DNA from: Candidatus Cloacimonadales bacterium | GTDB taxonomy: Bacteria > Cloacimonadota > Cloacimonadia > Cloacimonadales > JAIOQZ01 | Direction: 5' to 3' | Length of the DNA stretch: 64,000 bases | Assembly: GCA_963662655.2 (NCBI GenBank) | Contig: CAXXTU010000002.1 | Location: 2,272,001-2,336,000 of the forward strand | Shown here: piece after piece, positions 33,923 to 58,233 of the stretch | Layout of the letters: each line of letters opens with the position of its first letter | Position numbering within the stretch: the first letter of the stretch is position 1 | Notes under the pieces: generated by a model | Database searches by the model: none | The model's input: the letters and a program-made list of their open reading frames with translations, nothing else | What the model was told of the DNA's origin: nothing | Position numbers and translations under genes: made by a program

Positions 33923-33986
33923 AGTTTCCCCTCATTTATTGCATTCGATAAAATTTTCAGTTTCTGATCCGTTTTTCGTAGCGATG

Positions 33987-35162
33987 TCAGATATCCCTTC
34001 GGGATACTTGAAGAGTCGCACAGAAAAGGAGGTAATTCACCCCAAAAGAGTTATACTGTGTCAGTTTAATCTGGTTTGCAGATAAACGGTATCGTATATT
34101 GATAAACCTCCTGTTCAGGCGATCGAAATCCATATTGAACACGTCCAGAAAAATATCACTGAGTTCAGTCGTGGATAGATTCGTGCTGAAATGGATACTA
34201 TTCTTGCACAATCTCCGTTTGTCGTTCATGAGTTTATTCAAGTCAGACCAGGGGTGATTGTCGCTTGTTTCAATGTGCGAGTACTTTTCTATCAGAGCTT
34301 GTTGATAAGGTATTTTAGCCCATTCAGGATAACTTAGTTGCAGAGTATCCAATCCTGCATAGTAATGACCATGATCGCTGTAAAACTGGACTTTATCATT
34401 ACTTTTCCTTGTTGTTTTAGATGAGGATATTCCATCCGGAAGACACATGAATCTTGGAATCAACCTCCATTTCATCTTATTTGGTTTTTTAGGAGATGAT
34501 CGAAACCGAAAAAGCCCAATGATCCATGGTTTTTTGCGGAAAAGACCACAATTGATAGAGTGCAGCAGCACGGTTCGAATCGGAAGACGGAAACTTTTTC
34601 TTAGGTACATTAAAGCATTTAGTGGGTGGGGATGTTTTGTACTTGAAAGATACTCGCTGAACGTACCGGTCAATTTCCGATGTGGCATCAATAACCAGAA
34701 GGCATATAGATTGCAGATCAACTCGACGACATTATGGTCGAACAGCGTATTGTTTTCGGAGCAAGTGTGGCGGTAGAAATCAATATACCGCCTCAAGTAC
34801 AAATGGCCGAGTTCGTGGGCAATGAAGCTTCGCTCCAAAGGTTCCAATTGGTCACCAAGCTCGAATGGGCGATTGCTTGAGAAATCCAGAATTTGTTGTT
34901 GATATCGATTCCTCCCCTGTATTGCAATCTCATATTCAATGAATTGATCTTGTCTTTTTTTCCCTAACTGCAGCAACACGGCTGGTGCACCATAAATGCT
35001 CATTGCATCAGGGTTGTATCTTATCCGATTGACATGAAAGCAGCGCATGGCCTGGATTATGGGATCACAAGTAGATTCAAACGGACAGATGTCCCTGATG
35101 TGATCGGTAATATGCTCAGAGAATACCGTCTGTAGTTCGTAATCAAAGTAAATGTTTCGCAT
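33987..35162 (-). CDS. ImmA/IrrE-family metallopeptidase domain protein
   Basis: ERSFIAHELGHLYL...VELICNLYAFWLLMP matches the HExxH...E..AN.FA..LLMP pattern. Confidence 0.75.
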   Translation of the reverse strand: MRNIYFDYELQTVFSEHITDHIRDICPFESTCDPIIQAMRCFHVNRIRYNPDAMSIYGAPAVLLQLGKKRQDQFIEYEIAIQGRNRYQQQILDFSSNRPFELGDQLEPLERSFIAHELGHLYLRRYIDFYRHTCSENNTLFDHNVVELICNLYAFWLLMPHRKLTGTFSEYLSSTKHPHPLNALMYLRKSFRLPIRTVLLHSINCGLFRKKPWIIGLFRFRSSPKKPNKMKWRLIPRFMCLPDGISSSKTTRKSNDKVQFYSDHGHYYAGLDTLQLSYPEWAKIPYQQALIEKYSHIETSDNHPWSDLNKLMNDKRRLCKNSIHFSTNLSTTELSDIFLDVFNMDFDRLNRRFINIRYRLSANQIKLTQYNSFGVNYLLFCATLQVSRRDI

Positions 35163-35176
35163 GAAGTTTTTGTGGT

Positions 35177-36349
35177 CTATGTCTTATTCGCTTCATCGTA
35201 CCGATTGAACAATTCTTCCAACTGGATTTTGCTTGTATTAGCAAGACACACAAAAGGATTTTGAGAGTTCCTATACGATGAGTTCTTTACTTTCTTTGCA
35301 GCCACTGCGCTTACAACATCAATCAGTTTCGTGAAATCCCTATCCGAATGAATCGTCTCAGCAAAAACCTCATGTAATCTTCGGAGTTCACTGGTTTCGG
35401 TTCTGACACTCATGTTGAATCTCTTTTTCAATTCTTGCATGCTGTTGTCGTTGACTGCTTTCAGTTGTCCCGGAATCCATACTCTTTGGATGATCTCACC
35501 CTTTTCTGGATGCAATACCCAAGAATCATTTGAAGAATTGATATAGAAATCTTGTTCAAGGTAATTATTAATCCCTATGCTAGTGAACAAGTTTTTGAGC
35601 GCATCGTCCTCCACGATACTGTCTGGAGTCTGACTGAAAAATTCGATCATGAGTGGATACTGCAGGCAGATTTCTGGGCTCGTGTCACATCTGCAAAGTA
35701 GGTAATACTTCCTGCACAGGGATTCGTCGTGGAAACTCGGATATGGCCCGTATAGGCAACCCCTGAAATCGCTTTGTATGGTAGTTTTCATTTCGTTTAC
35801 TGGGTTCGGGGTCAGAAATCTCCTCCGGAAGGTCATGAAGAAAAGGTGTGTATCCTGGGGAGCTAGTTGCATAATACGGCGGTAGCTAAGCCTTCCGAGA
35901 ATTTTTGGAAAAGCTGGACCTTGAACGATGATGAAATGACTGGATTTATTATCGGGTTTTTTAATCTTCTTCTCCTCTTTCTTGCTCGCCTCAGCTTCCC
36001 TTATGCGTTTCACGCACTTGAGGATTTCTCTAACAAGTGCATCCGCAAGCATCCTCTCGAAAGCGGCATCGATCAGTTTGACTTGTTGCAACCACTCCGT
36101 ATTCTTGGGAGAGAGCGTCGATTGAGCTTCAGGATAGTACCCTCCAATACCAGAAATCCCCATCGTTTCCATAATACCCATTTCGGGGAATGGAACGAAC
36201 TGCGTTTGTGGTTCCCAGTCGAGAATATCGTTGTCGATATCCTTGGAATCGTCCCCTTCCGAGCTTGTTGTGGACGAAATACTGATAGCCACTCGAGATG
36301 GTGTTATAAACCATGAATATCCAATCCAGTACAAGGTTGTCATCATCAA
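35177..36349 (-). CDS. Hypothetical protein (390 aa)
   Basis: Long ORF coupled to the HD gene by a 4-bp overlap; no confident family. Confidence 0.75.
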   Translation of the reverse strand: MMMTTLYWIGYSWFITPSRVAISISSTTSSEGDDSKDIDNDILDWEPQTQFVPFPEMGIMETMGISGIGGYYPEAQSTLSPKNTEWLQQVKLIDAAFERMLADALVREILKCVKRIREAEASKKEEKKIKKPDNKSSHFIIVQGPAFPKILGRLSYRRIMQLAPQDTHLFFMTFRRRFLTPNPVNEMKTTIQSDFRGCLYGPYPSFHDESLCRKYYLLCRCDTSPEICLQYPLMIEFFSQTPDSIVEDDALKNLFTSIGINNYLEQDFYINSSNDSWVLHPEKGEIIQRVWIPGQLKAVNDNSMQELKKRFNMSVRTETSELRRLHEVFAETIHSDRDFTKLIDVVSAVAAKKVKNSSYRNSQNPFVCLANTSKIQLEELFNRYDEANKT

Positions 36350-38589
36350 ACCTCCTTTAGGTGAATGCCTTTGTCGAAACAGACTTTCTGGAACCGATCC
36401 TTGAGATATTCACGGCCAACCGTATTCGACATCGGGTCGATCAGAATGATCCTTAACTTATACGCGACAGGTATGTTTGTCCTGAAATCTACTTGATGTA
36501 GTGGGATTGAAGCTGGTGTTTTGACAGACCAGCTTGCCGGGTCGCCCTCGGGGACATAAAACATTTCGTTGACAATCGGTCTTTTCCCGACCTTGATCAC
36601 TCTTTTCTCAGGGTAGCCGCATACATGAAATGGCCCGATAACATCTACGAGTAATCTTCCTGGATGCTCAGCCTCGATCTGTCTCCCAATCTCAAAAATT
36701 TCCCGTTTTTTCTCATTCAGCCACGATTCGGCTTCATGCACCTTCTTGATATGCGAAGGAGCTCTTAGTATGTATGGCCCACCGAAGCATAGCATCGTAA
36801 ATATTCTATCAAGCCATTGACCCGAGTTGTAATACGATTCGGAGTAATGAGGCGGATTCGATGACTTTCTGTCATGATCATAGATTCCATCATGACTCCA
36901 GCTTGTTATAAACGATTTATCGATAACAAGGCAGCATAGATTGAGGATTTGCTCGTAGATAGATTTCTGTTTGCCCGAGCGGCTGTGCTGATCCGCTGCC
37001 CAAATTCCGATCTCGAGTAGAATTTTCACTTCGAGTTGTAAATCTTCAGATTTACTTCTTGAAACAAACGGAATGAGCCTTTTGTGGGCCCCTTTTATCA
37101 CTGAATCCTTATCGCCGTTGTTCAGGTTTTCCCGGAATGCGCATGCCCATGGAAACTCCTGATCGATCATTCGATATGTCTCAGCTATGGCACAGGCAAG
37201 CTTGAGGGTGCCAAAATCCGTGAAATATCGATAAATACGGCTCGCGGTCGATGCTTTTTGATCCAGTGAAACTTGCCCATTTTCTTCTTCCGCCAATTTC
37301 CCTTTTTTCGCTTTGCAGTCCTTTTTAGCTTCCTTTTTTTCTTCATTATTGCAATATCTGTGCGAAAAATCCCGATACTCCATGTAGTAGGTTAGATCGT
37401 TCAGGAACTGATCAAGGTATGGAGATTCGAGCTTGCGCTCTTCATTTAATACATTCGTAACGGTCTGTTCAACGACACCTTTTCGGAATAACTCTGCGAA
37501 TTTTTCGTGGTTATCATCTTTGCCATTGTCTGCACTCGATAAAGAAAAAAAGGATTCGACTGCTTCGTTCGAAAATCTTAGGATGAAATACGAGCACAGA
37601 ATGTATTGCACAATTCTTTCCATCAGTCTCATTCTCGGGGAAAAGTATAACGTATTATAAAGGTAACTCCGCTCAGAGAGAAACCTGTAAGCAGCAACAG
37701 CCGATTTCCCGTGAAGGAAAATCTGTCCACCCTCAGTAGTAATCTCCTGGCCACTCAAGAAGTCCTTGAGCCACTGCATTGTATCACCCTGTCTGCCGGT
37801 TAATCCCATCCATTGCTGATCGCGAAAGATATAGTCGATCTTATCCGCATCGAACGGGCTGTTCATGATGCAATCGAGCCATGTGATCCCGCTTACGCCA
37901 TCGAGCAATCTCTCGTACTCCATGAACTCCTCAAACGCTCTGTTACGGTTCTTCTCTTGTTCTTCAGCGCTACCGGAAACATCTTCTTTCATTGTTTCCT
38001 TGATCAGAGAGAGAAGCCTTATGCGCGTAAGTGTCTCATGGTGGTATGGCATATCGTTGAACGACCAGTGCAATTCACCGAAGACACGCTCGATTAAATG
38101 GGAAAAAGGAATATGCCCTATATCGTGCATTAAGGCGGTTATCACCAATCTTTTTCTCCAATCCTTGAATCTGTCTTTCAGTTCATCATCGTTTTTCAGT
38201 TCAGATATCGTTAGCATGCACTTCTGTAGATACTTCACCCATGTTTCCGCGACGCGCATGACTCCTAGCGAGTGATTCAGTCTTGTATGTGTTGTTTGCA
38301 CTTTCTTAGGGTCTTCGGGATTGAGCCAGTAATCCTGAAGCGCAAGCTGATGAATCCTGTCTAGCATTGACTTCTGCTTGTTCTGCTGATCGGTAATCTT
38401 GTTGTACAGAACCAGAAGTTGCTCGCAGTCATCATCTACGAAACGTTTTATGCTGATATCTATGAAGTTCTGGTCGGATGTACCACTTCCAGGTCGTGAA
38501 TTGCATTTCGTTACGATGAAACTTTTCTCAATTTCCGTATCCGTGGGCCACAGCCCGTCTCCCGGTAAGATTTTTTTATATTTCACCAT
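36346..38589 (-). CDS. HD phosphohydrolase, SAMHD1/dNTP triphosphohydrolase-like
   Basis: RIHQLAL...HTRLNHSLGVM...ALMHDIGHIPFSHLIE...HHE...DADKIDYIFRD...RSYLYNTLYF. Confidence 0.88.
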   Translation of the reverse strand: MVKYKKILPGDGLWPTDTEIEKSFIVTKCNSRPGSGTSDQNFIDISIKRFVDDDCEQLLVLYNKITDQQNKQKSMLDRIHQLALQDYWLNPEDPKKVQTTHTRLNHSLGVMRVAETWVKYLQKCMLTISELKNDDELKDRFKDWRKRLVITALMHDIGHIPFSHLIERVFGELHWSFNDMPYHHETLTRIRLLSLIKETMKEDVSGSAEEQEKNRNRAFEEFMEYERLLDGVSGITWLDCIMNSPFDADKIDYIFRDQQWMGLTGRQGDTMQWLKDFLSGQEITTEGGQIFLHGKSAVAAYRFLSERSYLYNTLYFSPRMRLMERIVQYILCSYFILRFSNEAVESFFSLSSADNGKDDNHEKFAELFRKGVVEQTVTNVLNEERKLESPYLDQFLNDLTYYMEYRDFSHRYCNNEEKKEAKKDCKAKKGKLAEEENGQVSLDQKASTASRIYRYFTDFGTLKLACAIAETYRMIDQEFPWACAFRENLNNGDKDSVIKGAHKRLIPFVSRSKSEDLQLEVKILLEIGIWAADQHSRSGKQKSIYEQILNLCCLVIDKSFITSWSHDGIYDHDRKSSNPPHYSESYYNSGQWLDRIFTMLCFGGPYILRAPSHIKKVHEAESWLNEKKREIFEIGRQIEAEHPGRLLVDVIGPFHVCGYPEKRVIKVGKRPIVNEMFYVPEGDPASWSVKTPASIPLHQVDFRTNIPVAYKLRIILIDPMSNTVGREYLKDRFQKVCFDKGIHLKEV

Positions 38590-38591
38590 AA

Positions 38592-40193
38592 TTAATCCAC
38601 TAAATCCTTGAGGCTTTCGGTTAGATCAAGAGAACCATCTGGTGTCAAGATTGTTACGAAACTCCCTTTCAATAATGAATTCCCCGTGTTTTCAACTGCC
38701 TTGATTTTGCTGAGCAAAGAAAGGGTTGGGGTATCCTTATTCTTCCGACCCCAATTGTACCACGGAATTTCGAGTTTCCAGGCCATGTTAGCCAGATAAT
38801 CAAGAATTGTTGAATCAGAATTCCCGGAGAAGCCGATTGTGCAAACACAGGAAATCTGCGATCCCAATACCCTCCATATCTCACTCATAATTTCCCCGAT
38901 CTCGATATCCTTAACAACATAACCGGGGAATGATATCGATATGGACCTGCGAGAACCACACTCGGGACAATGCTGAATTTTCTCGGCAACTTCCTTGAGT
39001 TTTTCAATCTCATCTTTCGGCAACGATTTATAATGTTTTAAATCAGGAAAAAGCCCATCGTTCAGGGGCCCAATCAATGAGTTATATACGATCTCGATGT
39101 ATTTTTTGAAGATGCTGATCTCATTCTTATTCCCACTGGAACCGTTGGGATCATTTTTATAGAAAATCCTGGCTTCCTCATTCTGATTCCGGCCAGAATT
39201 CTTATCATCTTCGTTAATGCGATGTAAAAGAAAAAAATTATCCCAGGTGCCATCCTCTACTGAGTCCATAATGCCTTTTATCTTGATATTCAGAGGCTGA
39301 TTTGATTCTCGCAGCGCTTCAAAGACGGATATCTCTTTGTTGTAATTCGAGCAAAGGGTGTTCGAGCATACTACATGGTAAACATCACCTCGAAGTGTAA
39401 TGATCCAGGGGCGTCCTTTATCTTTACCCACCTTGCTGTTGTGAGGTATCTTGGAAATCGCCTCTTTGCCGCTTACGACAATGCAGGGAATTTCATCCTT
39501 TGTGTTTAATTCTCGTGTCAAGGCGAGTGGGATGGCACCATCGAAATTTGTCGTTAGCAGAATTATGTTCTGTCCAAGAAGCCTTTGTTTTTTTTCGCAA
39601 ATGATTTCTCGGATCGACCTGTACATCTGGCATGCTATATCGGTAACGGATTTTGGGGGATCAATATTATCAGCCTGTTTTCTTCTTGCTTTTGATGGAT
39701 ATTTACCTTCCGGAGATGACACGGATTCCTTCCAATCATTTTCCTTCATTTGAGCAATCACATCCATCTTGAATATCCAATCATAAAGAAAACTATTGCA
39801 GAATAACTCCCAAAGTTTGCCTTGCTTTTTCAATTCACTGAAAAATTCTGCTTGGATAGGACGTGTTGGATACCGACCCTCTTTAACATGTTTCACGACA
39901 AGAAGGAATACTTCACTCTGGCGCATTTTTTTTGCAGCGTCCATGATTTTAATATTCCCTGCCCTCCCCAAAGCAATTTCGTTGATTACATAAATCGCGT
40001 GGTAGTATTCTTTGATAACTATTGGCGTTGCCCCAGATCCTAGAAGAAAAAGAGGAGCCTTGTTATTTTTCCAGCCTTGCCTAATTGATCTTCTGAGGCA
40101 ATCAGGTCCGGAGTTGTTTTCAGTTTTTTTCTTCAATGGATCATCTGTCATTAACATTACCTTGCCATCATGATTATGACATTTTCCTTGCAT
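38592..40193 (-). CDS. SIR2-like domain protein with Zn-binding Cys pairs
   Basis: PLFLLGSGAT, ILLTTNFD, ITLRGDVYHVVCSNTLC...CPECG...ISFPG, IGFSGNSD; the catalytic 'LHG' reads 'LRG'. Confidence 0.75.
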   Translation of the reverse strand: MQGKCHNHDGKVMLMTDDPLKKKTENNSGPDCLRRSIRQGWKNNKAPLFLLGSGATPIVIKEYYHAIYVINEIALGRAGNIKIMDAAKKMRQSEVFLLVVKHVKEGRYPTRPIQAEFFSELKKQGKLWELFCNSFLYDWIFKMDVIAQMKENDWKESVSSPEGKYPSKARRKQADNIDPPKSVTDIACQMYRSIREIICEKKQRLLGQNIILLTTNFDGAIPLALTRELNTKDEIPCIVVSGKEAISKIPHNSKVGKDKGRPWIITLRGDVYHVVCSNTLCSNYNKEISVFEALRESNQPLNIKIKGIMDSVEDGTWDNFFLLHRINEDDKNSGRNQNEEARIFYKNDPNGSSGNKNEISIFKKYIEIVYNSLIGPLNDGLFPDLKHYKSLPKDEIEKLKEVAEKIQHCPECGSRRSISISFPGYVVKDIEIGEIMSEIWRVLGSQISCVCTIGFSGNSDSTILDYLANMAWKLEIPWYNWGRKNKDTPTLSLLSKIKAVENTGNSLLKGSFVTILTPDGSLDLTESLKDLVD

Positions 40194-45508: not shown

Positions 45509-45648
45509 GATATTCGGCAATTTTCGTCTTTCGCTTAGCTGAAACGTAATGACTGAACGAAAGTCTTACACGGAGCGAAATCATGTTAGTGGAATATGTA
45601 GGCACCCCATGAAAAGGATCCTGCTGCTCATCCTGCTCCCCGTGATAT

Positions 45649-46592
45649 CGGTTCACCCCCACATGCGTGGGGAATACTATCCACTGGCTGGAAACCGGAG
45701 ACGGAAACCCGGTTCACCCCCACATGCGTGGGGAATACTACGATGGAACGAACCGCGAGCAATTCGAGAACGGTTCACCCCCACATGCGTGGGGAATACA
45801 CGATTGAACATATCCTCAGAAAAAAACACGCCGGTTCACCCCCACATGCGTGGGGAATACGGATTGGGCGACCCGCGCAACCTGCCGCATTTCGGTTCAC
45901 CCCCACATGCGTGGGGAATACGACATGGTCAACGCTGATCCTGCGAATACGTTCGGTTCACCCCCACATGCGTGGGGAATACTCATCGAATGGCTTTTGG
46001 GTTGTTTCGCTTGTCGGTTCACCCCCACATGCGTGGGGAATACGGTTACTGGAAGCAGACCGTCACCGATTGCCTCGGTTCACCCCCACATGCGTGGGGA
46101 ATACGACTCCGCGTAGGTTTGTATAACGTAGGTCGACGGTTCACCCCCACATGCGTGGGGAATACATCCAACTTTTCACCCGCTTCAGGCGCGAAAACGG
46201 TTCACCCCCACATGCGTGGGGAATACTGATTTGAGAAATCGTAGAAATAGCGGGATCCCGGTTCACCCCCACATGCGTGGGGAATACACAATCGTACCAT
46301 TCAGGTACCCAAGCTTGTCCGGTTCACCCCCACATGCGTGGGGAATACTTGACAACACCACGGTAATCGAAACGTACGGTCGGTTCACCCCCACATGCGT
46401 GGGGAATACTAAAAGTCGTCTGCCCTGCGTCTGTCGAAGCGCGGTTCACCCCCACATGCGTGGGGAATACTAGAAGTTTTGCACGTAACAGAACGCATCG
46501 ACCGGTTCACCCCCACATGCGTGGGGAATACGTCAGTGCGAGCGCGAACGATCCTCAGCAGGTCGGTTCACCCCCACATGCGTGGGGAATAC
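45649..46592 (-). CRISPR. Type I-E CRISPR array: 16 identical 29-bp repeats, 15 spacers of 32 bp
   Basis: Repeat (minus) GTATTCCCCACGCATGTGGGGGTGAACCG at a strict 61-bp period from 45649 to 46564; the I-E-type hairpin and 3' AACCG set the orientation. Confidence 0.99.
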
Positions 46593-46599
46593 TCTTGAT

Positions 46600-46884
46600 T
46601 TAATCGGGCTTCGAGGGCCTCGTCAGTAGCTTAAGTCCTTCCCAGTCTGTGACGATTCTGCTGTTGGCTCCCCAGAAGTCAACACAAAAACCCTGTTCGT
46701 TGTTGGTCGACCACAGCATCATGCAAGCGCCGCCTTTGGAGTCGGCGCAAACCTTCTTCCAGAGGCGATCGCGCACCATCGCGGATACGTTGCCGACGAA
46801 CACGCCTGCCTTCACTTCGAGCAGCCAGCGCGTCAGCTCACCCCTGAGCGAGACCGGAACCTTTTCGAGAATCATGACGTTCAC
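46600..46884 (-). CDS. cas2: CRISPR-associated Cas2 (type I-E)
   Basis: GTG start overlapping the cas1 stop; VMILEKVPVSLRGELTRWLLEVKAGVFVG...RDRLW...NNEQGF. Confidence 0.95.
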   Translation of the reverse strand: MNVMILEKVPVSLRGELTRWLLEVKAGVFVGNVSAMVRDRLWKKVCADSKGGACMMLWSTNNEQGFCVDFWGANSRIVTDWEGLKLLTRPSKPD

Positions 46885-47834
46885 TCTTCCTCCTTGTCTC
46901 CACCTTCTCCATAGGAAACGCCGCCGGCGCATTCGCCGGTCACGGGGTCCCACAAACCACCCGGCTTCGCGGGATCGGCATCGAAGTCGTCCTCGGCATC
47001 CTCGGGCGGTTTAGCCCCTAAGATGTCGTGGATATCCTTCACGATCCGCTTGAGCAGCCCCTGTTGATGGAACATGTCTCTACAGCGGATACGCACCTCG
47101 CGGCTGAGGTTTCTATCCACCTCCGCGACGGTCTGGAAGGCGACCGGGATCGTCAGTTCCGTCTTGTAGAGGTCCGCGACATCATAGACGAACGAGAGCT
47201 GCTTGCCGGTATGCACGAACCCGATTGCTGGGGAATATCCCGCCGCCACGATCGCCGCATGGGATATTCCGTAGAGGCATGAATTCGCCACCGACAACGC
47301 CTTGTTGATCGGATCGGCGTTCTTCCAGTCGCGCCGGTCATAGTTCCGACCCTTCCACGGGACGCCGGTATCGCGCGAGGCACGGAAGTAAGCGTCACGA
47401 ACTCGAACGCCTTCCATGCCCCTGATTTGCTCCAGTGTCAGCGACGGATCAGGCTTCTCCGGGAAGCGGAATTCGTACATCCTGCGCACGATGTAGAGGC
47501 GGGACTTCTCGTTCGCCCAGAGCTTCACCTGCCTGAGAAGATGAGAAGCCTTCCGGGTCGCGCCGCTGCCCGATGCGTAGAACCTTACGCCCTGTTCGCC
47601 GCTCCAGACGACCAGGCAACCGCAATCTGCGAGCGTCGTGATCGCCGCGTGCGTAATGCTCGTGCCCGGTCCGAGCAACAATACGGAGAGATTGTCGCAG
47701 GGAATCGGGGTCAACCCGCGAAGATCGTGGACGGCGATTGCCTTGTCTTCCCGATCGATGATTCCGTGCTCGATGTAGAGCCAGCTCCACTTGTCACGGA
47801 CCTTGGGGACTTGGTGATAATCCTTTGTCAGCAT
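46881..47834 (-). CDS. cas1: CRISPR-associated Cas1 (type I-E)
   Basis: LLLGPGTSITHAA, GEQGVRFYA, IRGMEGVRVR, GYSPAIGFVHTGKQLSFVYDVADLYK. Confidence 0.97.
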   Translation of the reverse strand: MLTKDYHQVPKVRDKWSWLYIEHGIIDREDKAIAVHDLRGLTPIPCDNLSVLLLGPGTSITHAAITTLADCGCLVVWSGEQGVRFYASGSGATRKASHLLRQVKLWANEKSRLYIVRRMYEFRFPEKPDPSLTLEQIRGMEGVRVRDAYFRASRDTGVPWKGRNYDRRDWKNADPINKALSVANSCLYGISHAAIVAAGYSPAIGFVHTGKQLSFVYDVADLYKTELTIPVAFQTVAEVDRNLSREVRIRCRDMFHQQGLLKRIVKDIHDILGAKPPEDAEDDFDADPAKPGGLWDPVTGECAGGVSYGEGGDKEEE

Positions 47835-47844
47835 GGATCACCTC

Positions 47845-48621
47845 CTACCTCCTGACAACCGACAACAGCCCGAACCCGAAAGATTTTGCGGACCCGATCC
47901 CGTTGCGGATGGTTTCCATGAATTGTTCCGGATCGGTCACTTCGAGGATGCCTTCCATCAGCGCTGCGTTGAAGGTAAGACGTTTCTTGTCGAGGTTCCA
48001 GCTACCGCTCCTGGTTGAAAAGCCGTCCGGCTTGTAACCGACGACCCGGAAGAGGCGTACAAGATCGAATTTCTCGATAACGAACCCACCATTGCCGGAA
48101 CGTCTGCCGAGCCAGTCTTTATACTCGTCGTGGAGCCGCACAGCGCGTTCATCCTCGGTCTCGTCAATCGGCCCGGCGAGGGACACGATCGAAACCCGTT
48201 TGCCGATCGTCCTTTTGCGCCCCTGCCTGTCGTATTTCTCTGTATGCTCGCGAGCGAAGTCACCCGTCGATATTTTCTTCGTGGGGTTCGCCAGCAGCCG
48301 GTAGCGCAGGATATCTCCTTCATGGAAGACAGGATCGTAGGGCTTGTATGCCGGCAGAGACGCGAGGAAATCGGGCGCGTTGTAGAAGGCTTCTTGCCAG
48401 TTCGGTTCTGCCTCCGATTGCACCAGGATCATCGCGCGTGAGCCGTCTGAGCTGATGTTGTTGTCGATGCGGAAGAGGAACATGGCTTTTTGATCATCCT
48501 TCTTACCGAACGCCATCGAAAGTCGCTGGTGGACGTGGTAGATGTTGTTGAGCCACATCCTTCCCGGGCGCGGTCGATCGGGATTACCGCCCGTGTCGAT
48601 CAGTAGTTGGGACAGGTACAT
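47845..48621 (-). CDS. cas6e: Cas6e (Cse3/CasE) crRNA endoribonuclease
   Basis: MYLSQL, YHVHQRL, LFRID, YRLLANPTKK, Gly loop GIGSAKSFGFGLL. Confidence 0.95.
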   Translation of the reverse strand: MYLSQLLIDTGGNPDRPRPGRMWLNNIYHVHQRLSMAFGKKDDQKAMFLFRIDNNISSDGSRAMILVQSEAEPNWQEAFYNAPDFLASLPAYKPYDPVFHEGDILRYRLLANPTKKISTGDFAREHTEKYDRQGRKRTIGKRVSIVSLAGPIDETEDERAVRLHDEYKDWLGRRSGNGGFVIEKFDLVRLFRVVGYKPDGFSTRSGSWNLDKKRLTFNAALMEGILEVTDPEQFMETIRNGIGSAKSFGFGLLSVVRR

Positions 48622-49732
48622 CGTCGCCCTCCTTTTCTTCGAATCTGCGTTTACGGGTCTTCTTGCTGCGGAATTTCACGATCTCGGCGCGCTTTTCGCG
48701 GATACGTTCGCGCCACGCCGGGTCTTCGGGATCGATGCGGTCGATGCCCATGTTGGCGCCGTACTCGAGCATGGTGATGGCGTCGTGGCAAAGTCGGCAC
48801 AGCGATTTCAGATCATCGAGCGATTCGTTGCCACCCGCGCGCCGATAGGTGATGTGCTGCACGGTCGAAGAAGGTGAACCGCAGAAGGTGCAGCGTCCGT
48901 CGTCATGCGCCAGTCGCTTCGCACGTTTCTTGCGGAACTCGGTGTTCTGATAGTCGGCGTGGATGCGTTGTGTAGAATAAGCACCCTCCACGCCCAGTAT
49001 CACATTACTGCGCTTCACATCGCCGTTTTTACCGACCGTTAACGATGATCGAATGGCGAAACGCGGTCTGTGGGACGGCGGATCGAAGGTGAAGGGGACA
49101 TCGTACCAGACTTCGGCTTCTTCGGGGGCTTCGGGCTGGTTTTCGGTTGGACGCCAGTCGAGGAGAACCGTGACTTCGCAAGGTAGATGCTTATCATTGT
49201 CTTCGTGTCTTTGCGGCCAGGGAATCGATGCGAGGGCTTCTTCGAGCGAAGCGAATGTACCAGCGCGGTGTTCGTTAACCGGACGTGACATGGGGCAGTT
49301 CTTCCGGCCGAGGAAGAGCGCCCAGACGGGATTTTCGAGCGCGGATGACAAGGTCGCGATCAGATCTTCGTCACCCCGGAGCGCTACCAGGAAGCTCGCG
49401 TCGCAGAGGTATTCCCTGCGGGTGAGCATGGGGCCGTTTTTCTCTTTGCCTTCTGCCGTCGCCATCTTCATACCGGCGCCCACGGTATGCCAGTCCCACC
49501 AGCGGATGCCCGGGCGATCGATGCGCACGCCCATTTCGAGGTTCGAGAGCTTTTCGAGCCAGCCGTCTTGCGCTTCCAGGCGGGATAGCCCCATCGCGGC
49601 GCAGAGCATGCCGATCACGCCGGACTTGGTAGGCGCTTCCTTCGTGCGCCGGATCACGAACTTCGATTCATGGCTTCCCCACGCCTGCATCGGTCCTTCC
49701 AGACGCAGGAACAGGGTGTTGTCACGCATCAT
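48584..49732 (-). CDS. cas5e: Cas5e fused to a C-terminal HNH endonuclease
   Basis: LRLEGPMQAWG, PTKSGVIGMLCAAMG, REYLCDASF, LFLGRKNCP (Cas5e), then DDGRCTFCG..VQHITYRRAGGNESLDDLKSLCRLCHDA (HNH). Confidence 0.93.
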   Translation of the reverse strand: MMRDNTLFLRLEGPMQAWGSHESKFVIRRTKEAPTKSGVIGMLCAAMGLSRLEAQDGWLEKLSNLEMGVRIDRPGIRWWDWHTVGAGMKMATAEGKEKNGPMLTRREYLCDASFLVALRGDEDLIATLSSALENPVWALFLGRKNCPMSRPVNEHRAGTFASLEEALASIPWPQRHEDNDKHLPCEVTVLLDWRPTENQPEAPEEAEVWYDVPFTFDPPSHRPRFAIRSSLTVGKNGDVKRSNVILGVEGAYSTQRIHADYQNTEFRKKRAKRLAHDDGRCTFCGSPSSTVQHITYRRAGGNESLDDLKSLCRLCHDAITMLEYGANMGIDRIDPEDPAWRERIREKRAEIVKFRSKKTRKRRFEEKEGDDVPVPTTDRHGR

Positions 49733-50861
49733 GCTTCTCCACGATCGCTTTTTGCACCGCCTCCCAGTCGAAACCCATCTCTTTCACGATTGCCGTGACA
49801 AACTGGTCGAAATTGCTCAGGCTTTCTTTCGCAAGACCATGGAAATCATACCGTCCGCCCGGTGAGAACCAGTATCGCTCGCCCTGCGCGCTGAAGCCCT
49901 CGTCGAGCTCGGAGACGTACTGCGCCAGTTGTGCGACGCTTTCTTCCACCAGGTCGCGCTGTCCGGGCCTGACCGGCTTCACGAAGGCGTTGGCGTAGCT
50001 GATCGGCGTCTTGTTATCCTTCTTGATCTCGACAAGGATTCCGTCCGGCGGGTTGTGCGCGGCGTAGCTGTTCTGTTTGCCACTCGGCGTGGTCAGCGCC
50101 ATGGCACGGATGAACGCGCCGACGGTGTGCGCCGCCAGATCGACCTGTCCGCCAAGGTTAGCAACGAGCTGCTCCCAATCGATGGAGAAGTATTTATAGA
50201 AGCAGGAGGAGGAATAGAGCGCTTCATCGACATGAGCTGCTCCGGATTTTGCCACAGATGCATCATCCACTGCGGTGAAGTAGTCGATTTCAGGGTGTGC
50301 GACGTGAGTTGATATCGCGTGTGCGGCTTGCAGGGCTGCTTCGATTCCAGTATTCGTTGCTCTCAGCATACTTTGCTTCTTTGCTTCAAGCATTCTGCCA
50401 TGTAATGCAATATCTGGCTCCTCTGCTATAGTGATGATAGTTGCAATTTTGTTAGCTTTCTCATCATCAGGTATCTTAGAAGTCACCACATCAACTAGCT
50501 TCGGAATAGCTTTTTTGGAGACAAACACAAGTACTTTGGTGTGTTCTTTACCGGTTTCCTTGTCTTTCTCCATGTCCAAACCAGTCATCTTTAGAAGAGC
50601 CTTAGCTTTTTTCAGGACTTCTTCTTGCATCTTGTGATCTTTAGTAGTAGCTTCCGCGATCCTGTCTGCAAGCCACCTTGTTCTTTCCCCACCCATAAGC
50701 TTCTCAAACTGTTTACTCATCCTGATACTTCTCTTCAGGCACTGGCTTGAGATACGACTTCTGAGGTAGCCGCCGAACATGGTGGTCTTGGGTGCGCCGA
50801 GGTCGTCGCGGTTGAGGTTACTGGGCGCGTGATTCTGGATGGCATGAATCTCGATTAACAT
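49722..50861 (-). CDS. cas7e: Cas7 (Cse4/CasC)
   Basis: IHAIQNHAPSNLNRDDLGAPKT..GG..RSRISSQCLKRSIR, DIALHGRM, AHAISTH, DYFTAVDD, PSGKQNSYA. Confidence 0.97.
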   Translation of the reverse strand: MLIEIHAIQNHAPSNLNRDDLGAPKTTMFGGYLRSRISSQCLKRSIRMSKQFEKLMGGERTRWLADRIAEATTKDHKMQEEVLKKAKALLKMTGLDMEKDKETGKEHTKVLVFVSKKAIPKLVDVVTSKIPDDEKANKIATIITIAEEPDIALHGRMLEAKKQSMLRATNTGIEAALQAAHAISTHVAHPEIDYFTAVDDASVAKSGAAHVDEALYSSSCFYKYFSIDWEQLVANLGGQVDLAAHTVGAFIRAMALTTPSGKQNSYAAHNPPDGILVEIKKDNKTPISYANAFVKPVRPGQRDLVEESVAQLAQYVSELDEGFSAQGERYWFSPGGRYDFHGLAKESLSNFDQFVTAIVKEMGFDWEAVQKAIVEKHDA

Positions 50862-50873
50862 GGGTTCCTCCTG

Positions 50874-51362
50874 TTATTGCTGATTGATGTATTGTTCGAT
50901 CCATTTTTGTCGGGTAGTCTGTCTCTCCCAGATGGAGAGGTCGTCGGTGACTTGTGCCCAGTTGAGGGACATCCCGAGCTTCGCGACCTCTCGCAAAGCC
51001 CATCTGAGGTGCGGCTCGATGGTGTCGAGCGATTGGATGAGCATTTCATCGACTCGTTTATCGAAGCGGACTCCTTTGTCGGGATCACTCGGTCGTCGTT
51101 TGCTCAGTAGTATCATAAGGGGCTTTCCCTTCTCATGAGACAATGGTGCGACGGCATAGAGCTTGCAGATAAGCCATGCAACACTACGACGTGGTGCGGA
51201 TTGGTTTTTCTGCCGTAATGGCCACCAGATGCCGGTAAAGATGTCGAATCCTTGCAGGCTTTCGTCGAGTCCTTGATCGGCATGGGTGCGCAAGAGGCTG
51301 AGCTCGCCCGATTTCAGCTTCGAAAGGCCGATAATGAATCGATAGGTGCTGATACTTGCCAT
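50874..51362 (-). CDS. cse2: Cas11 (Cse2/CasB) small subunit
   Basis: Located between cas8e and cas7; start at MASISTYRF (51362); helical, ending LNWAQVTDDLSIW...KWIEQY. Confidence 0.85.
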   Translation of the reverse strand: MASISTYRFIIGLSKLKSGELSLLRTHADQGLDESLQGFDIFTGIWWPLRQKNQSAPRRSVAWLICKLYAVAPLSHEKGKPLMILLSKRRPSDPDKGVRFDKRVDEMLIQSLDTIEPHLRWALREVAKLGMSLNWAQVTDDLSIWERQTTRQKWIEQYINQQ

Positions 51363-51363
51363 C

Positions 51364-52848
51364 TTACTTGTCCTCCTTCGGGAGCCTGGGACGTAGCCGC
51401 TTGATCTCCCTGCGCTTCTTGGCATCCCTGATTGTCACATCCGGAGCGAGCGATTCCGCTGCTGCTTTCATGAACGGTGCATATTCGTTTGCAGCATCAT
51501 CCCATGTGTAATCGCCATTGCCCGAAAGCAAATCGGTCATGTGATTCGCGACCTGTTCCTCGACGTGAGGACGGGATAGCCGGGAGATGAAGGCGGTACG
51601 GGTGGGGGCTTTCTTCTTAGCATTCTTTTGCTCTTCTTTATCCTTGCGTTTTTTCTCGTAGTCTTTATCATTGTATTTCCAAAGGACATCATGAATTCTT
51701 TCCGATAGATATGTTATCGCATTTCCCCATAAATCACGACGAGCTTCATCTAATGACATTGCTGGGATTGTTACCATTTGTTCCCATGTATCAACCCCCT
51801 TGCTATTCTGGCTATCGATAGAAAAGACAACAAAATGTATCTTATTTCCCCTTGAAAAAGGTATCCAATCACGGTGTTTCAAAATAGTGAGGAGGGTTTT
51901 GTCGATCGATATTTTCGGAGTTTTTATTGGGTCACTTACACGAAGGATTTTCGTTTCGTATTTGGTTTCCTTCTTTTTCGGTATCACTTTCGTCGCCCAT
52001 AATACATGAGGATCCTGCCATTCCAACCCCTTTGACCATCCCGCTTCTTGCATGTATATCGTCCTGATGAATAGAAAGTGATTTTCCCCGCAAACCGAAC
52101 ATGGTTCTCCTCCGCTTTCCGTCTCGTTAAGAAAGACTTGCACAGGAATGGAGGTTAATCCCTGTAATAAGGACACTGGGTTAGACGGTTGCAAAAAAGG
52201 CTGTTCAGTTGTCCATGAGGGCAATCCAGGATTATCCCCGGGATTCCAATTCAACCGGATCGTATGAAGAAGCGTTCCTGAATCAAAGAACCAGTAAACT
52301 GGAGGAACACCGTTGATACCGTGACTCAGTTTCGTGAAACCACTCATCGAGAATACGGGGGGTCTCAACAACGCCATTGCAGCGCACGAGGGACAGACTC
52401 CGTTTTCACTGTCTATAACATGACGGAAATGCCAGGAGTTATGTCCGCTTGGCAACTCATGAAACAGATTCGTGACAGGTTTCTTTTTCTGTGGTTTTAT
52501 TTTTTGCAGGTTTGGAGCCAATTCTATATCCTGATAAAACCTCTTCCCGTCTCCCAGCAAGTTGAAGCAATCATGTTGCCCTCTAAGGAAGGTGATCCAC
52601 TCCATCGGTATCCCATTACCGTTTGCAGGAAATGGCTTCCCTGTCCGGTCCGCGCACCAGTAGCACACAGCCAGCAGAAAGCGGAAGACTGCGAACCGGT
52701 CCATGGGGTTGCTGGGGGCGATCTGTCGTATCGCTGCTGCCTTATCGAGCGTTTCGATGATGCCAAGTCTTTCATTGTCTCCGTGAAGCGTCAGGACAGG
52801 CAACCATTTCTCATCGAGAAGATTGTAGCGTTGATCGTTTGCGCACAT
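51364..52848 (-). CDS. cas8e: Cas8e (Cse1/CasA) large subunit
   Basis: YNLLDEKWLPV, RFLLAV, FNLLGDGKRFYQ, CPSCAAMALL, CSVCG, WQDPH. Confidence 0.9.
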   Translation of the reverse strand: MCANDQRYNLLDEKWLPVLTLHGDNERLGIIETLDKAAAIRQIAPSNPMDRFAVFRFLLAVCYWCADRTGKPFPANGNGIPMEWITFLRGQHDCFNLLGDGKRFYQDIELAPNLQKIKPQKKKPVTNLFHELPSGHNSWHFRHVIDSENGVCPSCAAMALLRPPVFSMSGFTKLSHGINGVPPVYWFFDSGTLLHTIRLNWNPGDNPGLPSWTTEQPFLQPSNPVSLLQGLTSIPVQVFLNETESGGEPCSVCGENHFLFIRTIYMQEAGWSKGLEWQDPHVLWATKVIPKKKETKYETKILRVSDPIKTPKISIDKTLLTILKHRDWIPFSRGNKIHFVVFSIDSQNSKGVDTWEQMVTIPAMSLDEARRDLWGNAITYLSERIHDVLWKYNDKDYEKKRKDKEEQKNAKKKAPTRTAFISRLSRPHVEEQVANHMTDLLSGNGDYTWDDAANEYAPFMKAAAESLAPDVTIRDAKKRREIKRLRPRLPKEDK

Positions 52849-53415
52849 TGGTGTCTCCTTGCTAGTGGATTGAGGATCATATAATTCTAAAGCAATGTTA
52901 TAGCGATATCAGGCATGGAAAATGCCGCAACAATGACACACATACATTTAAGATGATGCGATGATTCTTTTTTGCCATATCAATAAACTATATCGCTTAA
53001 TGTCAAACGATTTGTGCCTATAGCTAAAAGCGGCAGAGGATTCTCCTGCCTTGAAACTTGCTCAATCCTCATATGAATCACCTCCCCAAACGGCGGTATG
53101 AAACGCTCTTGTTCCGTGACGCCCCACAGTGTCGGATATTCGCAGGATTCGGGCATTGAGATGGCGGGATGGTTCATGGGTTCCTCCTAATGAGGTTTGG
53201 GGGATGGGTAGGACGAGGCATACATGATGAGCTGCTTTTCCCGTTCGGCGATCCGCGAGCGCTCAGACAATACAATTGAATACCGACAAAACTGATATTT
53301 CAGATTGTAAAGATTGGTGTTGAGATAGCCTCTAATGAATCAGATTCATTAAGATAATTTACTTGACATGTACATGAGTATTCATTCTTCATTAAAAAAA
53401 CTTCTGGAGCCATCT

Positions 53416-56400
53416 ATGAAACTTTTTTTACTTACGACACTTTTCGTTTTCACTCTCAGTTTTATTTTTGCCGATGGCGTACAGCCGTCGGGGGCAGGTA
53501 CAGAGTCAAGTCCATATCAAATCGCGAGTCTCGATAACCTGTTGTGGCTCAGCACGAATTCATCGTATTGGGGCGATTACTTTATGCAGACGGCAGACAT
53601 CGATGCATCCGACACACAGAACTGGAATTCAGGCGCGGGATTTTCGCCGGTCGGTACTGAAGGCGATCCATTCTCAGGTGATTTCAACGGCCAGGGTAAT
53701 GTGATTTCCAATTTGACGATTAATCGACCTTCTTTGGGAGGATGTGGATTATTTGGCTATACCGATGGAGCATAACTTCACGATATTCATTTGGAGAATG
53801 TACAGATTTCGAGTGAATCTAATGCGGGTACTATTGCTGGATTCAATCTAAACACAAGTCTCTATCGATGTTCTGCAACCGGAACATTGACAGTCGATCA
53901 TCAGTCTGTAAATTCCAATAGCTACGCAGGTGGTCTGATAGGCAGACATACAAGCTTCGATGGAGTGACCGCGAATATCATTGAATGCTACACTGATGTC
54001 GAAATAACAGCGAATGGCGACCGCGTTGGAGGTATCACGGGGCTTGTTCTTTCAGGTTATCAGAGTACAGTCGGTGGAGATATTTTAATCTCCAACTGCT
54101 ACAGTCAAGGAAGCATTTCTGCGAACAACCATGTTGCAGGATTGGTGGGCAGAATCCCAGACTGGGCTACCACGCCTGGTACGGTTGAAATCGTCAATTG
54201 CTACAGCACAACTTCAGTAACGGGAAACAATACACTTGGCGGATTGATTGCCGAACGTGGAATCGGAACTGTGACCACGTCTTTCTGGGATACCGAAACA
54301 TCGGGTCAATCCTCCAGCGCTGGCGGTACAGGACTTTCCACAGCAGAAATGAAGGACTTCTTCACCTACTACGATGCCGAATGGGACTTCATGAATGAAT
54401 CACCGAACGGTACGAACGATCGATGGGGAATGAACAGCGCTGATAATGGCGGTTACCCCTTCCTCTCTATCCAGGGTTACGAGAACGACTGGCCCAAACT
54501 GCCCGACGGTAACGGAAGTGAAGCGAACCCCTGGGAGATATCGACAATCCAGCACCTGTTGTGGTTGTCCATGCATGATGATGCCTGGGGAGGCAGCGAT
54601 TACATCATCCAGACGGCAGATATAGACGCATCAGACACCCAGAACTGGTTCGATGGCGCGGGATTCTTGCCTGTCGGAAACGCTGACCAGAAGTTCATGG
54701 GTGAATACGATGGAGCAGGTTATTCAATATCAAACCTTTACATCAATCGTCCCGCAACGGACAATGTAGCGTTGTTCGGCTTTACCGACCAAGCCAATCT
54801 ATCCGACGTTCACCTGGTCAATGCAAATATCGTGGGGCAGGCTAAGGTGGGAGCCCTTGTTGGTCATGCTCACACCACGAATGTCCATAGCTGCTCGGCT
54901 ACGGGCAATGTTACAGCCAATCACCAGACGGTAAACAACAATAGCTATGCAGGTGGATTAATCGGATCGTATGTATCGAATGAGAGTTCTTCCGCCAGCA
55001 TTACATCCTCATATACAGACGTTAATGTAGATGTTATGGGAGATGTCGCAGGCGGTCTGATTGGGCTGATCTCGTCTGGATTTCAGGCAACACCCGGGGG
55101 TGACGTTCTCATCTCCAATTGCTACACGCGTGGCTCCGTAATCGGGCAAGCCAGGATTGGCGGGATGATCGGTAGAATCCCCGACTGGGCATACGTGCCC
55201 GGTACGGTTGAAATCGTCAATTGTTACAGCTCGACGATCGTGTCGGGAAATTCTTTAGTTGGCGGTTTGATTGGCGATCGTGGAACCGGAACCTTAACCT
55301 CGTCTTTCTGGGATACGGACGTCTCAGGACAATCCTCCAGCGCTGGCGGCACGGGGATGATAACAGCCGACATGAAGCACGCGCAATACTTCTACGAAGC
55401 AGGCTGGGATTTCGCCGGTGAAACGCAAAACGGTTCGGATGATATCTGGGGTCTCAATAACAATAAAAACAACGGCTATCCCTTCCTGATGTGGCAGGGA
55501 TTTGCAAATACCGATTACTGCGTATTTGCCGGTTCCGGTACCGAGGCCGATCCCTATCAGGTATCGAGTCTCAACCACCTGAGAGAATTGAGTAGTCTTG
55601 CGTCGATATGGGATGATCACTTCATTCAGACCGCTGATATCGACGCGACCGGTACACAAAGTGATCCTTTTGTCCCAATTGGGAACGGTACGAATAAATT
55701 CGAAGGATCATACGATGGCAACGGCTTCCAGATCACGAATCTGAATATTGATCGAAATGCTGATTATAATGGACTCTTCGGATACGCGTTGAACTCGACT
55801 ATCACAAACATACATCTGGTTGATGTCGAGATAGATGGAAACAATTACACGGGTACACTAATTGGATATGGCAATAACGTTCATGTGACGAAATGCTCCG
55901 CAACAGGCAATCTTCATGGTGATAATTATGTTGGTGGTTTGATAGGATTTACCAGATACACTGGCAGCAATGGATCGTATGTAAGTGAATGCTGGACCAA
56001 TGTTAGAGTTTTCTCATACACTCAATATGCTGGAGGACTCATTGGTTTCATAGTGAATGGCGATTCCCAGGTATCAACCACGTTTACGATCGAAAACTGT
56101 TATGCTCGCGGATGGGTACAATCAACGAATTATACCGGTGGACTCATCGGATATATATTGGTTGAATCATATCAAACCGCATCAGTAAAGAATTGCTTCA
56201 GCGCTGGACGTGTAGTGTGCTCGTTTAGTAACTATGGAGGTTTGATAGGTTATAAAACACCCACCTGTGATGTTTTAAACTGTTTCTGGGATATGACGAA
56301 TTCATACACGAATTCAAGTAATGGCGGAACGGGTAAGACAGCATCTGAGATGTTTGATCTCGCTACCTATACCGACCTGTCAACCGATGGATTGACCACT

Positions 56401-58233
56401 GCCTGGGACTTCGTTTGCAACCCCAATGACGATACCGGAAACGATGATATATGGGTGATGAATCCCCCCATCTATCCGGTGTTTAGCTGGCAGGAGGTGC
56501 CACCCGTGGTGGCAACGATCGAAGCGACCAATATCACGACCAACAGCGCCGAAGCAGGCGGTATGGTCGGGTATGCCCGGGTCGATGCACCGGTCGCACG
56601 GACGGCGAGTGCGAGCAAAGAAGTGCCCCAAACGCGGAACCAGCAGAAATCGTTCAAACAGGTTACCACCAAGGATCGCGCCGACGTAACGGCAAGAGGC
56701 GTGTGCTGGAGTACCTCGGCCAATCCCACGCTGGAAGACTTCTACACCGTCGATGGAAGCGGACTGGGGTCATTCACCTCGACGCTGACCGGATTGAGTG
56801 AGGGTACGATATACTACTATCGGGCCTATGCAACCAGCGTCAACGGCACCGGTTACGGAGAAGAATACAGCTTCGTCACCCTCTTCTCACCCGCCGACAA
56901 CGAATTTCCCGCCAACGGCGCGACAGGCTTACCGCGACAGGTAACCGTCAGCTGGCGTTTCAGTGGAAGCGCCGAGCTAACAGGATTCAAGGTGTACAAA
57001 GGTGAGACACAGGTTGGCGACCCCGTTCCCGTGTGGAATTTTGGAGAGAATACTCAGTACAACATGGCGATGCCGCTTGCCGATTGGGGCGAAACGGTCA
57101 CCTGGAAGATCGTGCCTTACAACGATAACGGCGACTGCACGGCTCCGGTTGTTTGGAGCTACACGACGATGGACGAACCGGCGGAACCGGATCAGGTTCC
57201 CACCGAAATCGTCTATGCCAGTTTAGAGGGTGTGTCCGTTACCAATCCCTCTCCTATCTTTTTCCCGTCGATTATCCTGGAGGAATTTGGTTTCCAGCCG
57301 ACGTTGACCTATGGCTTCGGAACCGCGCCTTCCAATGCGACGATCGGTGGCATCGTCCGTGATTTACCGACTCATCTGCTCCCGCACAGCGAGTTCTGCA
57401 CGGTGGCTTTCACCGCCGATATCCCTTCCGGCATCCAGACGCTGATCGAGCTGTTCTACAGCTACACCTTGCATTCCAACGAGCTTGCCTGGTGGAATGG
57501 CTCGAGCTGGCAGGATATCACGATCTCCAGCGGAGCTGATTTCTCAACCCCTGGAACCGTGGTCTTCACATGGACATCGACCGGACGCGGTACCGACGAA
57601 TTTGTGGTCAACAATGGCGATGGAACGACCCTGCCGGTCGAGATGTCTTCGTTCACCGCTACCGTTACCTCGCAGAATTATTCGAAGATCAACTGGACGA
57701 CCCAATCCGAGAGCGATATGGCAGGGTACAATCTCTATCGCACGGATGAAAATAGCCTCGAAGATGCTCTGAAGATCAATCTGGATATTATCCCTGCCGC
57801 AAATGCAACCGAAGCGACCAGCTACGAGTTTCTCGACCAGGATGTTACGAAGGATGCGCAGTACTTCTACTGGCTTGAGAGCGTGGAACTTGGCGGAGGT
57901 TCATCCATGCATGGTCCGGTCACGGTGACAATCACCGAGGATGGCGGTTCCGGCGATACGCCCGAAATTACGTTTTCAACCAAGTTTACCGGTACGTACC
58001 CGAATCCGTTCAACCCGGTGACGACGATCAGCTATACGCTGGAAGCGAATCGCACCGTCCGGTTTTCCATGTTCGATCTGAAGGGCAGGAAAGTTGGTTC
58101 GTTATCGCAGCATGGCGAAAAGGGTCGCAACACCCTGACCTGGAACGCAAAGGACCTACCCAGCGGAATCTACTTCATCCGGATGAACGCCGGCGATGTC
58201 GAGCAAGTTCGCAAGGTCATGATTCTGAAATAG
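53416..58233 (+). pseudogene. GLUG-repeat surface protein with FN3-like and T9SS/FlgD-type C-terminus, interrupted by one in-frame TAA (53773-53775)
   Basis: Track ORFs 53368..53775 and 53791..58233 share a frame: ...GLFGYTDGA*LHDIHLENV...; signal peptide from ATG 53416; repeated GGLIG/NCYS units; TYPNPFNP tail. Confidence 0.8.

Follow-up and report, generated by a model that had tools for sequence, protein, structure and literature searches.

The closest known system to the one described here is the type I-E2 Cascade of ADurb.Bin088 (Altae-Tran 2023, PMC10910872; Liu 2025, PMC11794572; PDB 8YB6, 8YHA, 8ZLU and 9JXS), a variant named in PMC12669027 and structurally summarized in PMC11822464. 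This Cas5-HNH Cascade makes cuts that depend on the protospacer adjacent motif (PAM) 3-4 and 8 nucleotides (nt) beyond the protospacer, leaving 3' overhangs, and was reported to cut single-stranded DNA (ssDNA) collaterally and to generate indels in human cells (PMC10910872). Its HNH residues are H310, D324 and H333, where H310A and D324A abolish cleavage, and its four cysteines are needed for both binding and cutting (PMC11794572). Here we analyze a CRISPR-Cas locus within a 64,000-nt stretch of a Candidatus Cloacimonadales bacterium genome (the window, to which our coordinates refer; GCA_963662655.2, contig CAXXTU010000002.1, positions 2,272,001 to 2,336,000). Judged by its sequence, the locus is an intact-looking new member of type I-E2, in line with the original prediction, made from the DNA letters, that it would be a further ortholog within a class that is not new.

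Pfam, NCBIfam and PADLOC place all seven cas genes in type I-E families. The genes form seven intact open reading frames (ORFs) on the minus strand in the predicted order cas8e-cas11-cas7-cas5-cas6e-cas1-cas2-array, each single-copy in the genome, and for all five Cascade proteins the top PDB match was a chain of 8YB6, which is the Cas5-HNH Cascade from Candidatus Cloacimonetes. Cas5 contains a Pfam Cas5 domain at residues 6-219 and a Pfam HNH domain at residues 281-319 (27.1 bits against a cut-off of 21.4), and its alignment with 8yb6_A over residues 4-368, on which the HNH assignment rests, is nearly gap-free. The residues proposed beforehand as a zinc-bound HNH site (C281, C284, H293, D307, C312, C315 and H316) all lie where they had been placed. 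H293, D307 and H316 align with H310, D324 and H333 of 8YB6 (three of three catalytic residues), and C281, C284, C312 and C315 are equivalent to C298, C301, C329 and C332 (four of four zinc cysteines). Both histidines and all four cysteines are invariant in 18 of 18 orthologs, while the D307 position is D in 12, E in five and H in one.

The locus combines these features of type I-E2: an HNH domain on the Cas5e C-terminus with the H/D/H residues and four cysteines, a five-gene Cascade, an array with 32-nt spacers, and no cas3 found. Cas11 aligns end to end with the 174-amino-acid (aa) 8yb6_K and has no extra domain, which sets the locus apart from type I-E3, with its PD-(D/E)xK nuclease fused to Cas11. 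Cas8 is a Cas8e with no HNH match and the HNH domain sits on Cas5, unlike type I-F4, in which it resides in Cas8f.

By analogy with the characterized ortholog, we consider it very probable that the locus encodes an I-E2 Cas5-HNH Cascade that is likely to cut invading DNA at one fixed spot. In such a complex, Cas6 would cut the pre-CRISPR RNA into 61-nt guides, around which Cas8, one Cas11, six Cas7, Cas5-HNH and Cas6 would assemble. Cas8 would read the PAM. Once an R-loop has formed, the HNH domain, which would sit between Cas6 and Cas11 and take the place of the second Cas11, would nick the target strand 3-4 nt past the protospacer; the non-target strand would be nicked next, 8 nt past the protospacer, giving 3' overhangs and collateral ssDNA cutting. 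From the comparison of loci, Cas1-Cas2 would add new spacers at the repeat next to cas2, guided by leader signals that sit mostly in the final cas2 codons, and the array would probably be read through from the cas operon.

The original prediction had seen no cas3 in the window. A check of the whole genome (3.81 Mb, two contigs, 98.95% complete) by three approaches likewise found none, so that the helicase-nuclease of canonical type I-E is missing from what was searched. Two weak Cas3_HD matches proved to be HDOD signalling proteins, three cas3_core matches below the cut-off were RecG, Mfd and a DbpA helicase, and a tblastn search of the genome, with four Cas3 or Cas3-like sequences taken from related loci as queries, returned nothing at 1e-3. 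The HD protein encoded at 36346-38589 was rejected as a Cas3'' partner, being dGTPase-like and 7 kb away, as was a 65-aa ORF ahead of cas8 as a cas3 remnant, since it matches the end of the DUF2201 gene that precedes cas8 in the same-genus locus L008. Across the phylum, a cas3_core match was present in one of 15 genomes with Cas5-HNH (G077, on another contig) versus 81 of 232 genomes over the cut-off, a tally that may miss some I-E Cas3 genes, as the model failed to recover E. coli Cas3 at 1e-20 in a control; this limit counts against a system without Cas3.

It could be argued that the complex is a canonical I-E Cascade that borrows Cas3 in trans, with the HNH domain as an accessory. We collected 82 related loci (the best 80 of 391 metagenome stretches and two from viral contigs), of which 34 were informative upstream, with at least 1.5 kb ahead of cas8, and 37 downstream, with at least 2.3 kb beyond the HNH region. 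A cas3-like sequence ahead of cas8 was found in four of the 34, three of them near-copies, and about 1% of the genome may be unassembled, both of which lend some room to Cas3 in trans. However, no cas3 was found in this genome, the ortholog cuts without Cas3 and needs its HNH residues (PMC10910872, PMC11794572), and the cas3 of L154 is split into two ORFs while that of L121 is a 441-aa frame, so that we regard borrowing as highly improbable compared with cutting by the Cas5-HNH complex itself. The I-E2 loci in which a cas3-like sequence precedes cas8 (L153-L155, L121 and L125; the match in L121 is weak and was absent on a repeat search) are possible intermediates of cas3 loss.

Features of the I-E2 locus and its immediate surroundings (positions in the window)
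Feature	Position	Strand	Details
CRISPR array	45649..46592	-	16 identical 29-nt I-E-type repeats, 15 unique 32-nt spacers
Candidate leader embedded in cas2	46593..46652	-	60 nt before the first repeat: 53 nt cas2 coding, 7 nt non-coding
cas2e, 94 aa	46600..46884	-	TIGR01873; GTG start overlaps cas1 stop
cas1e, 317 aa	46881..47834	-	TIGR03638 6e-116; sole cas1 of the genome
cas6e, 258 aa	47845..48621	-	TIGR01907; 8yb6_B 8.9e-59
cas5e-HNH fusion, 382 aa	48584..49732	-	Pfam Cas5 and HNH; 8yb6_A E=1.7e-129
HNH active site and zinc finger (by alignment)	48785..48892	-	Cas5 C-terminus
cas7e, 379 aa	49722..50861	-	TIGR01869 7e-82; 8yb6_D 3.7e-110
cas11 (cse2), probably 162 aa	50874..51362	-	TIGR02548 over cut-off; top match 8yb6_K 1.1e-28
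cas8e large subunit, 494 aa	51364..52848	-	Pfam CRISPR_Cse1 6e-34; top PDB match 8yb6_J 1.2e-62
Divergent cas8e core, about aa 110-425	51571..52516	-	holds the predicted PAM-reading loop (52321-52350)
65-aa remnant, resembles 3' end of a DUF2201 (vWA-like) gene	52980..53177	-	56% identity to the L008 DUF2201 end

The Cascade genes appear to have a mosaic history. Compared with two loci of the same genus, L056 and L043, the proteins Cas1 (L056 only), Cas2, Cas5 and Cas11 are 78-96% identical, whereas Cas8 reaches 53%, Cas7 69% and Cas6 72-73%; between L056 and L043 themselves the values are 91% for Cas8 and 87% for both Cas7 and Cas6. The loss of identity is confined to blocks, at about residues 110-425 of Cas8, 57-175 of Cas7 and 122-178 of Cas6. 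Windows of the Cas8 core show 14-47% amino acid identity, although in the same windows the other two members of the genus agree with each other at 83-97%; its DNA has no blastn match to L008, and its best match among the fetched loci is about 41%. These blocks probably arrived by recombination, their donor lying outside the sampled loci. An assembly chimera in Cas8 was considered and is not supported, as a single Logan contig spans 49168-53400 with 0 differences, although the run in question may be the source sample.

Residues 167-176 of Cas8, within the divergent core, align with the glycine-rich loop of T. thermophilus Cse1 and are predicted to form the PAM-reading glycine loop, an equation drawn partly by way of the E. 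coli protein. A loop of this kind is described in PMC6546366. The loop sequence is absent from all 70 rows compared, and these form several loop classes. Given the probable replacement of the Cas8 core, a PAM different from the ortholog's is plausible; a search of the literature on the question yielded a single review, which was unrelated. Within one genome (G030), two I-E2 loci (L054 and L055) carry different Cas8 loop classes.

Most of the tested substrate and Cas11 contacts of the ortholog are retained in the present complex: the equivalents of 8YB6 residues Y278, D277, Q309, K285, R358, M338, V369 and F371 are also kept, as are the HNH-contacting W46, R49 and Q53 of Cas11 and D16-R17-P18 of Cas6. 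Several observations nevertheless weigh against a cutting complex. At the HNH-Cas6 interface K272 stands for E289, D278 for H295, G285 for K302 and H258 for R275, Cas6 is without the H50/F51/K53 stretch of 8YB6, and E289A disrupted DNA binding in the ortholog (PMC11794572). The divergent Cas8, Cas7 and Cas6 segments would have to fit the other subunits, and two of the three same-genus I-E2 loci (L043, and L010/L057) are decaying. The mosaic segments, the changed interface residues such as K272 and the decay of relatives could also be explained by a system that recently became inactive or binding-only, with swapped segments or altered HNH-Cas6 contacts blocking assembly or HNH activation. We judge this very unlikely: none of the seven ORFs is interrupted, the catalytic residues remain in place and every repeat is perfect; K272 moreover also occurs in L043, at a position that varies across the family, and the swapped Cas8 core retains the invariant residues of the family.

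The array predicted for the locus is borne out by 16 identical repeats of 29 nt and 15 spacers, each of 32 nt, and is the sole CRISPR-like array in the genome; the only other periodic match, on the second contig at about 1736751, is a head-to-tail 71-nt tandem repeat. The spacer length agrees with the CRISPR RNAs (crRNAs) of the ortholog. The repeat folds as a 7-bp hairpin on the minus strand with a z of only -1.7, so that orientation rests on the repeat type and on relatives, and from these we infer that the crRNA sense is on the minus strand. None of the arrays compared, which include three more from this genus, shares a spacer with another. Together with intact cas1 and cas2 and perfect repeats, this suggests ongoing spacer acquisition and turnover. 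Exact patterns from three of the 15 spacers (one 30-mer and two 20-mers) found no target in viral contigs, the whole array found none among GenBank phages, all 15 spacers found none in the genome itself, and 916 pooled spacers found none in the genome and all fetched loci; six weak matches of 24-26 of 32 nt look like chance. Without a spacer target the PAM could not be inferred. Beyond the far array end (45609-45648, plus strand), an ATG, two codons for basic residues and a hydrophobic run lead straight into the last repeat, and this signal-peptide-like start may be a broken gene start or chance.

With only 7 nt between the cas2 stop and the first repeat, the signal for spacer addition may lie inside cas2. 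In E. coli, a leader of about 60 bp is needed; the integrase is anchored at -50 to -53, and changes are tolerated at -34 to -45 (PMC5224486; also bioRxiv 2023.05.26.542337). Of the 16 I-E2 loci in the phylum, 13 have 46 nt between the cas2 Gly83 codon and the repeat, whereas three canonical Cas3 loci of the same phylum have AT-rich non-coding leaders of 86-87 nt. Among 86 loci with cas1, cas2 and an array (102 before removal of those at 90% Cas1 identity or more), the Gly83-to-repeat distance is 43-47 nt in 39, comprising 34 with HNH and five without, and below 43 nt in none. These 39 average 58% Cas1 identity, and their stop-to-repeat gaps range from 1 to 19 nt. The short leader is not specific to I-E2, as shown by the five I-E loci without HNH and by the longer spacing of 26 of 60 HNH loci. 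Among the relatives are 15 complete short-leader arrays, of which seven have a deviating repeat at the end far from cas2 and one at the end next to cas2; since the distal repeat is the more often degenerate, the growing end of the array would adjoin cas2. Set against this, all repeats of the study array are perfect, and its polarity cannot be read from that array alone.

Codon choice in cas2 adds to the evidence. Leu84, a conserved CTT codon located here at 46633-46635, is CTT in 25 of the 36 short-class loci with Leu at that position (4.8 expected from codon use) versus five of 34 long-class loci, and Asp80 is GAC in 27 of 28. In the main clade, Leu84 requires five parsimony changes, compared with 10-19 in the 23 other Leu columns; of all 109 degenerate columns it changes least. 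Four in-clade lineages have a non-coding leader that measures at least 40 nt, and three of these (L047, L049/L050 and L159, but not L138) also keep a CTT at -43 or -41. The fixed spacing and the least-changing Leu84 together suggest a leader inside cas2. A sigma-70-like site within cas2 (46682-46655) is within chance (five such sites found, 6.3 expected), and of the two HU/IHF-family genes in the genome neither exceeds the IHF cut-offs.

Taken jointly, these data allow a tentative reading, to which we give somewhat less than an even chance: the largest sampled I-E2 clade would have folded its leader into cas2, the last codons doubling as a phased DNA signal (CTT at -43, GAC at -55) for leader-end integration, so that one stretch of DNA would encode both an integrase subunit and its docking site. 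The study locus, with its recombined Cas8 core and unusual PAM loop, would in the same reading indicate that I-E2 may change PAM by swapping Cas8 modules. Alternatively, and with a chance approaching even, the 7-nt gap and the fixed spacing were inherited from a single ancient deletion, cas2 holds no signal, and integration uses only the repeat and a few adjacent bases. Such a deletion would account for 32 of the 39 short-spacing loci falling in one Cas1 clade of a quick tree (support 93), which makes them non-independent. It is further favored by strong bias in other codon columns (cas2 Leu6, p=5e-8; Leu13 in long-leader loci, p=1e-8), by cas2 Gly52, which changes nearly as little as Leu84 (0.17 versus 0.16), and by the position of the CTT at -43 to -41, inside the mutation-tolerant zone of E. 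coli (-34 to -45; PMC5224486). In L047, L049 and L159, the resemblance of the non-coding leader to cas2 could be homology left over from a duplication, and L138 is without the motif. A single deletion is harder to reconcile with a spacing that holds at 43-47 nt, never below 43 in 86 loci, while the gap varies from 1 to 19 nt, with the recurrence of the short layout elsewhere in the tree (11 changes, at least four forced) and with the few parsimony changes at Leu84. Within its reach, which took in PMC13748974 and PMC10011333, our literature search found no account of a leader within cas2 or of I-E2 adaptation; outside it lay Data S2 of PMC10910872 and the paper most likely to contain such an account, Santiago-Frangos 2021 (Curr Biol).

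Across the phylum, 15 of 232 genomes have Cas5-HNH in full-length or broken form, all four of this genus among them, while the remaining seven of 22 phylum matches are plain Cas5 or a lone HNH. It was also found in Planctomycetota and a Chthonomonas, and the 391 relatives from one metagenome scan indicate that the family is not tiny. Two IMG/VR viral contigs carry Cas5-HNH loci (L183 and L184), the latter with cas1, cas2 and an array. Retention of cas1 and cas2 had been stressed in the original prediction. Both genes are indeed intact, but they also occur in 37 of the 37 relatives that were informative and in L049, which has an array as well and in its HNH region departs from 8YB6 at two of about 119 residues; keeping the adaptation module is therefore the norm. 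Among the same-genus genomes, G116 (L010/L057) has lost cas8, cas11 and cas7 from the locus, has a cas1 with an internal deletion and a cas5 into which IS3-type and group II intron sequence has been inserted, and in G115 (L043) cas1 is down to 19 codons.

Two gene starts call for a small correction: cas11 probably begins at the ATG at 51362, preceded by GGAGG, and cas2 probably at the GTG at 46884. The locus is flanked by genes for large secreted proteins. Upstream of the I-E2 loci of two same-genus members lies a trio of AAA ATPase, DUF3150-like and DUF2201 genes (L008, 742-3851; L010, 2027-5133), of which the study locus keeps only the 65-aa remnant. A 135-aa signal-peptide ORF and a 1480-aa GLUG/secretion-tail ORF (53368-58233, plus strand) look like one gene broken near 53775. 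Further away, the 747-aa HD-domain dGTPase-like gene lies directly 3' of a 533-aa gene (36346-40193, minus strand) that has no Pfam match and whose top Atlas match, with a score of 0.90 and 150 shared features, is to a SIR2_2 cluster. This pair heads a same-strand run (28964-36349) of 390-aa and 1652-aa genes with no NCBIfam family and a 391-aa gene with a weak repressor/antitoxin match, possibly an undescribed defence cluster.

With one characterized Cas5-HNH Cascade found in the literature and subunits 31-55% identical to that lineage, the study ortholog, with its distinct Cas8 loop, can reasonably be considered for a type I editor that cuts precisely and may use a different PAM. As I-E2 keeps Cas1-Cas2 without the Cas3 that E. 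coli priming needs, one can ask directly in this system whether a single HNH cut is able to prime. Should the leader indeed be located within cas2, recoding that gene for expression would erase the integration signal unnoticed, and searches for leaders confined to non-coding DNA would overlook it.

Set beside known systems, the locus shares with the ADurb.Bin088 I-E2 Cascade the five Cascade genes, the C-terminal Cas5 HNH with H/D/H and four cysteines, the lack of cas3 and the 32-nt spacers. L049, nearly identical to the ADurb.Bin088 system, has the same gene order as the study locus, cas1, cas2 and array included, and identities to its proteins are 55% for Cas5, 51% for Cas7, 48% for Cas6, 35% for Cas11 and 31% for Cas8. 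The study Cas8 differs from that of ADurb.Bin088 in its loop and in having no 80-aa N-terminal extension, the Cas6 loops are shorter, and the gap from cas2 to the repeat is 7 nt compared with 50 nt in L049. With canonical type I-E (E. coli, T. fusca and the same-phylum L058-L060), the locus has in common the Cas8e, Cas11, Cas7, Cas5, Cas6e, Cas1e and Cas2e families, a 29-nt hairpin repeat and 32-nt spacers. It differs from them in having the predicted nuclease built into Cas5 and no Cas3. Cas3-dependent priming (PMC10011333) cannot work in it as described. The I-F4 Cas8-HNH Cascade of Selenomonas (PMC10910872, PMC12669027) is alike in that an HNH domain stands in for Cas3, with cutting at a defined PAM-distal site; there, however, HNH sits on the Cas8f of a type I-F complex and leaves 5' overhangs, whereas in the present locus it is carried by the Cas5e of a type I-E complex.

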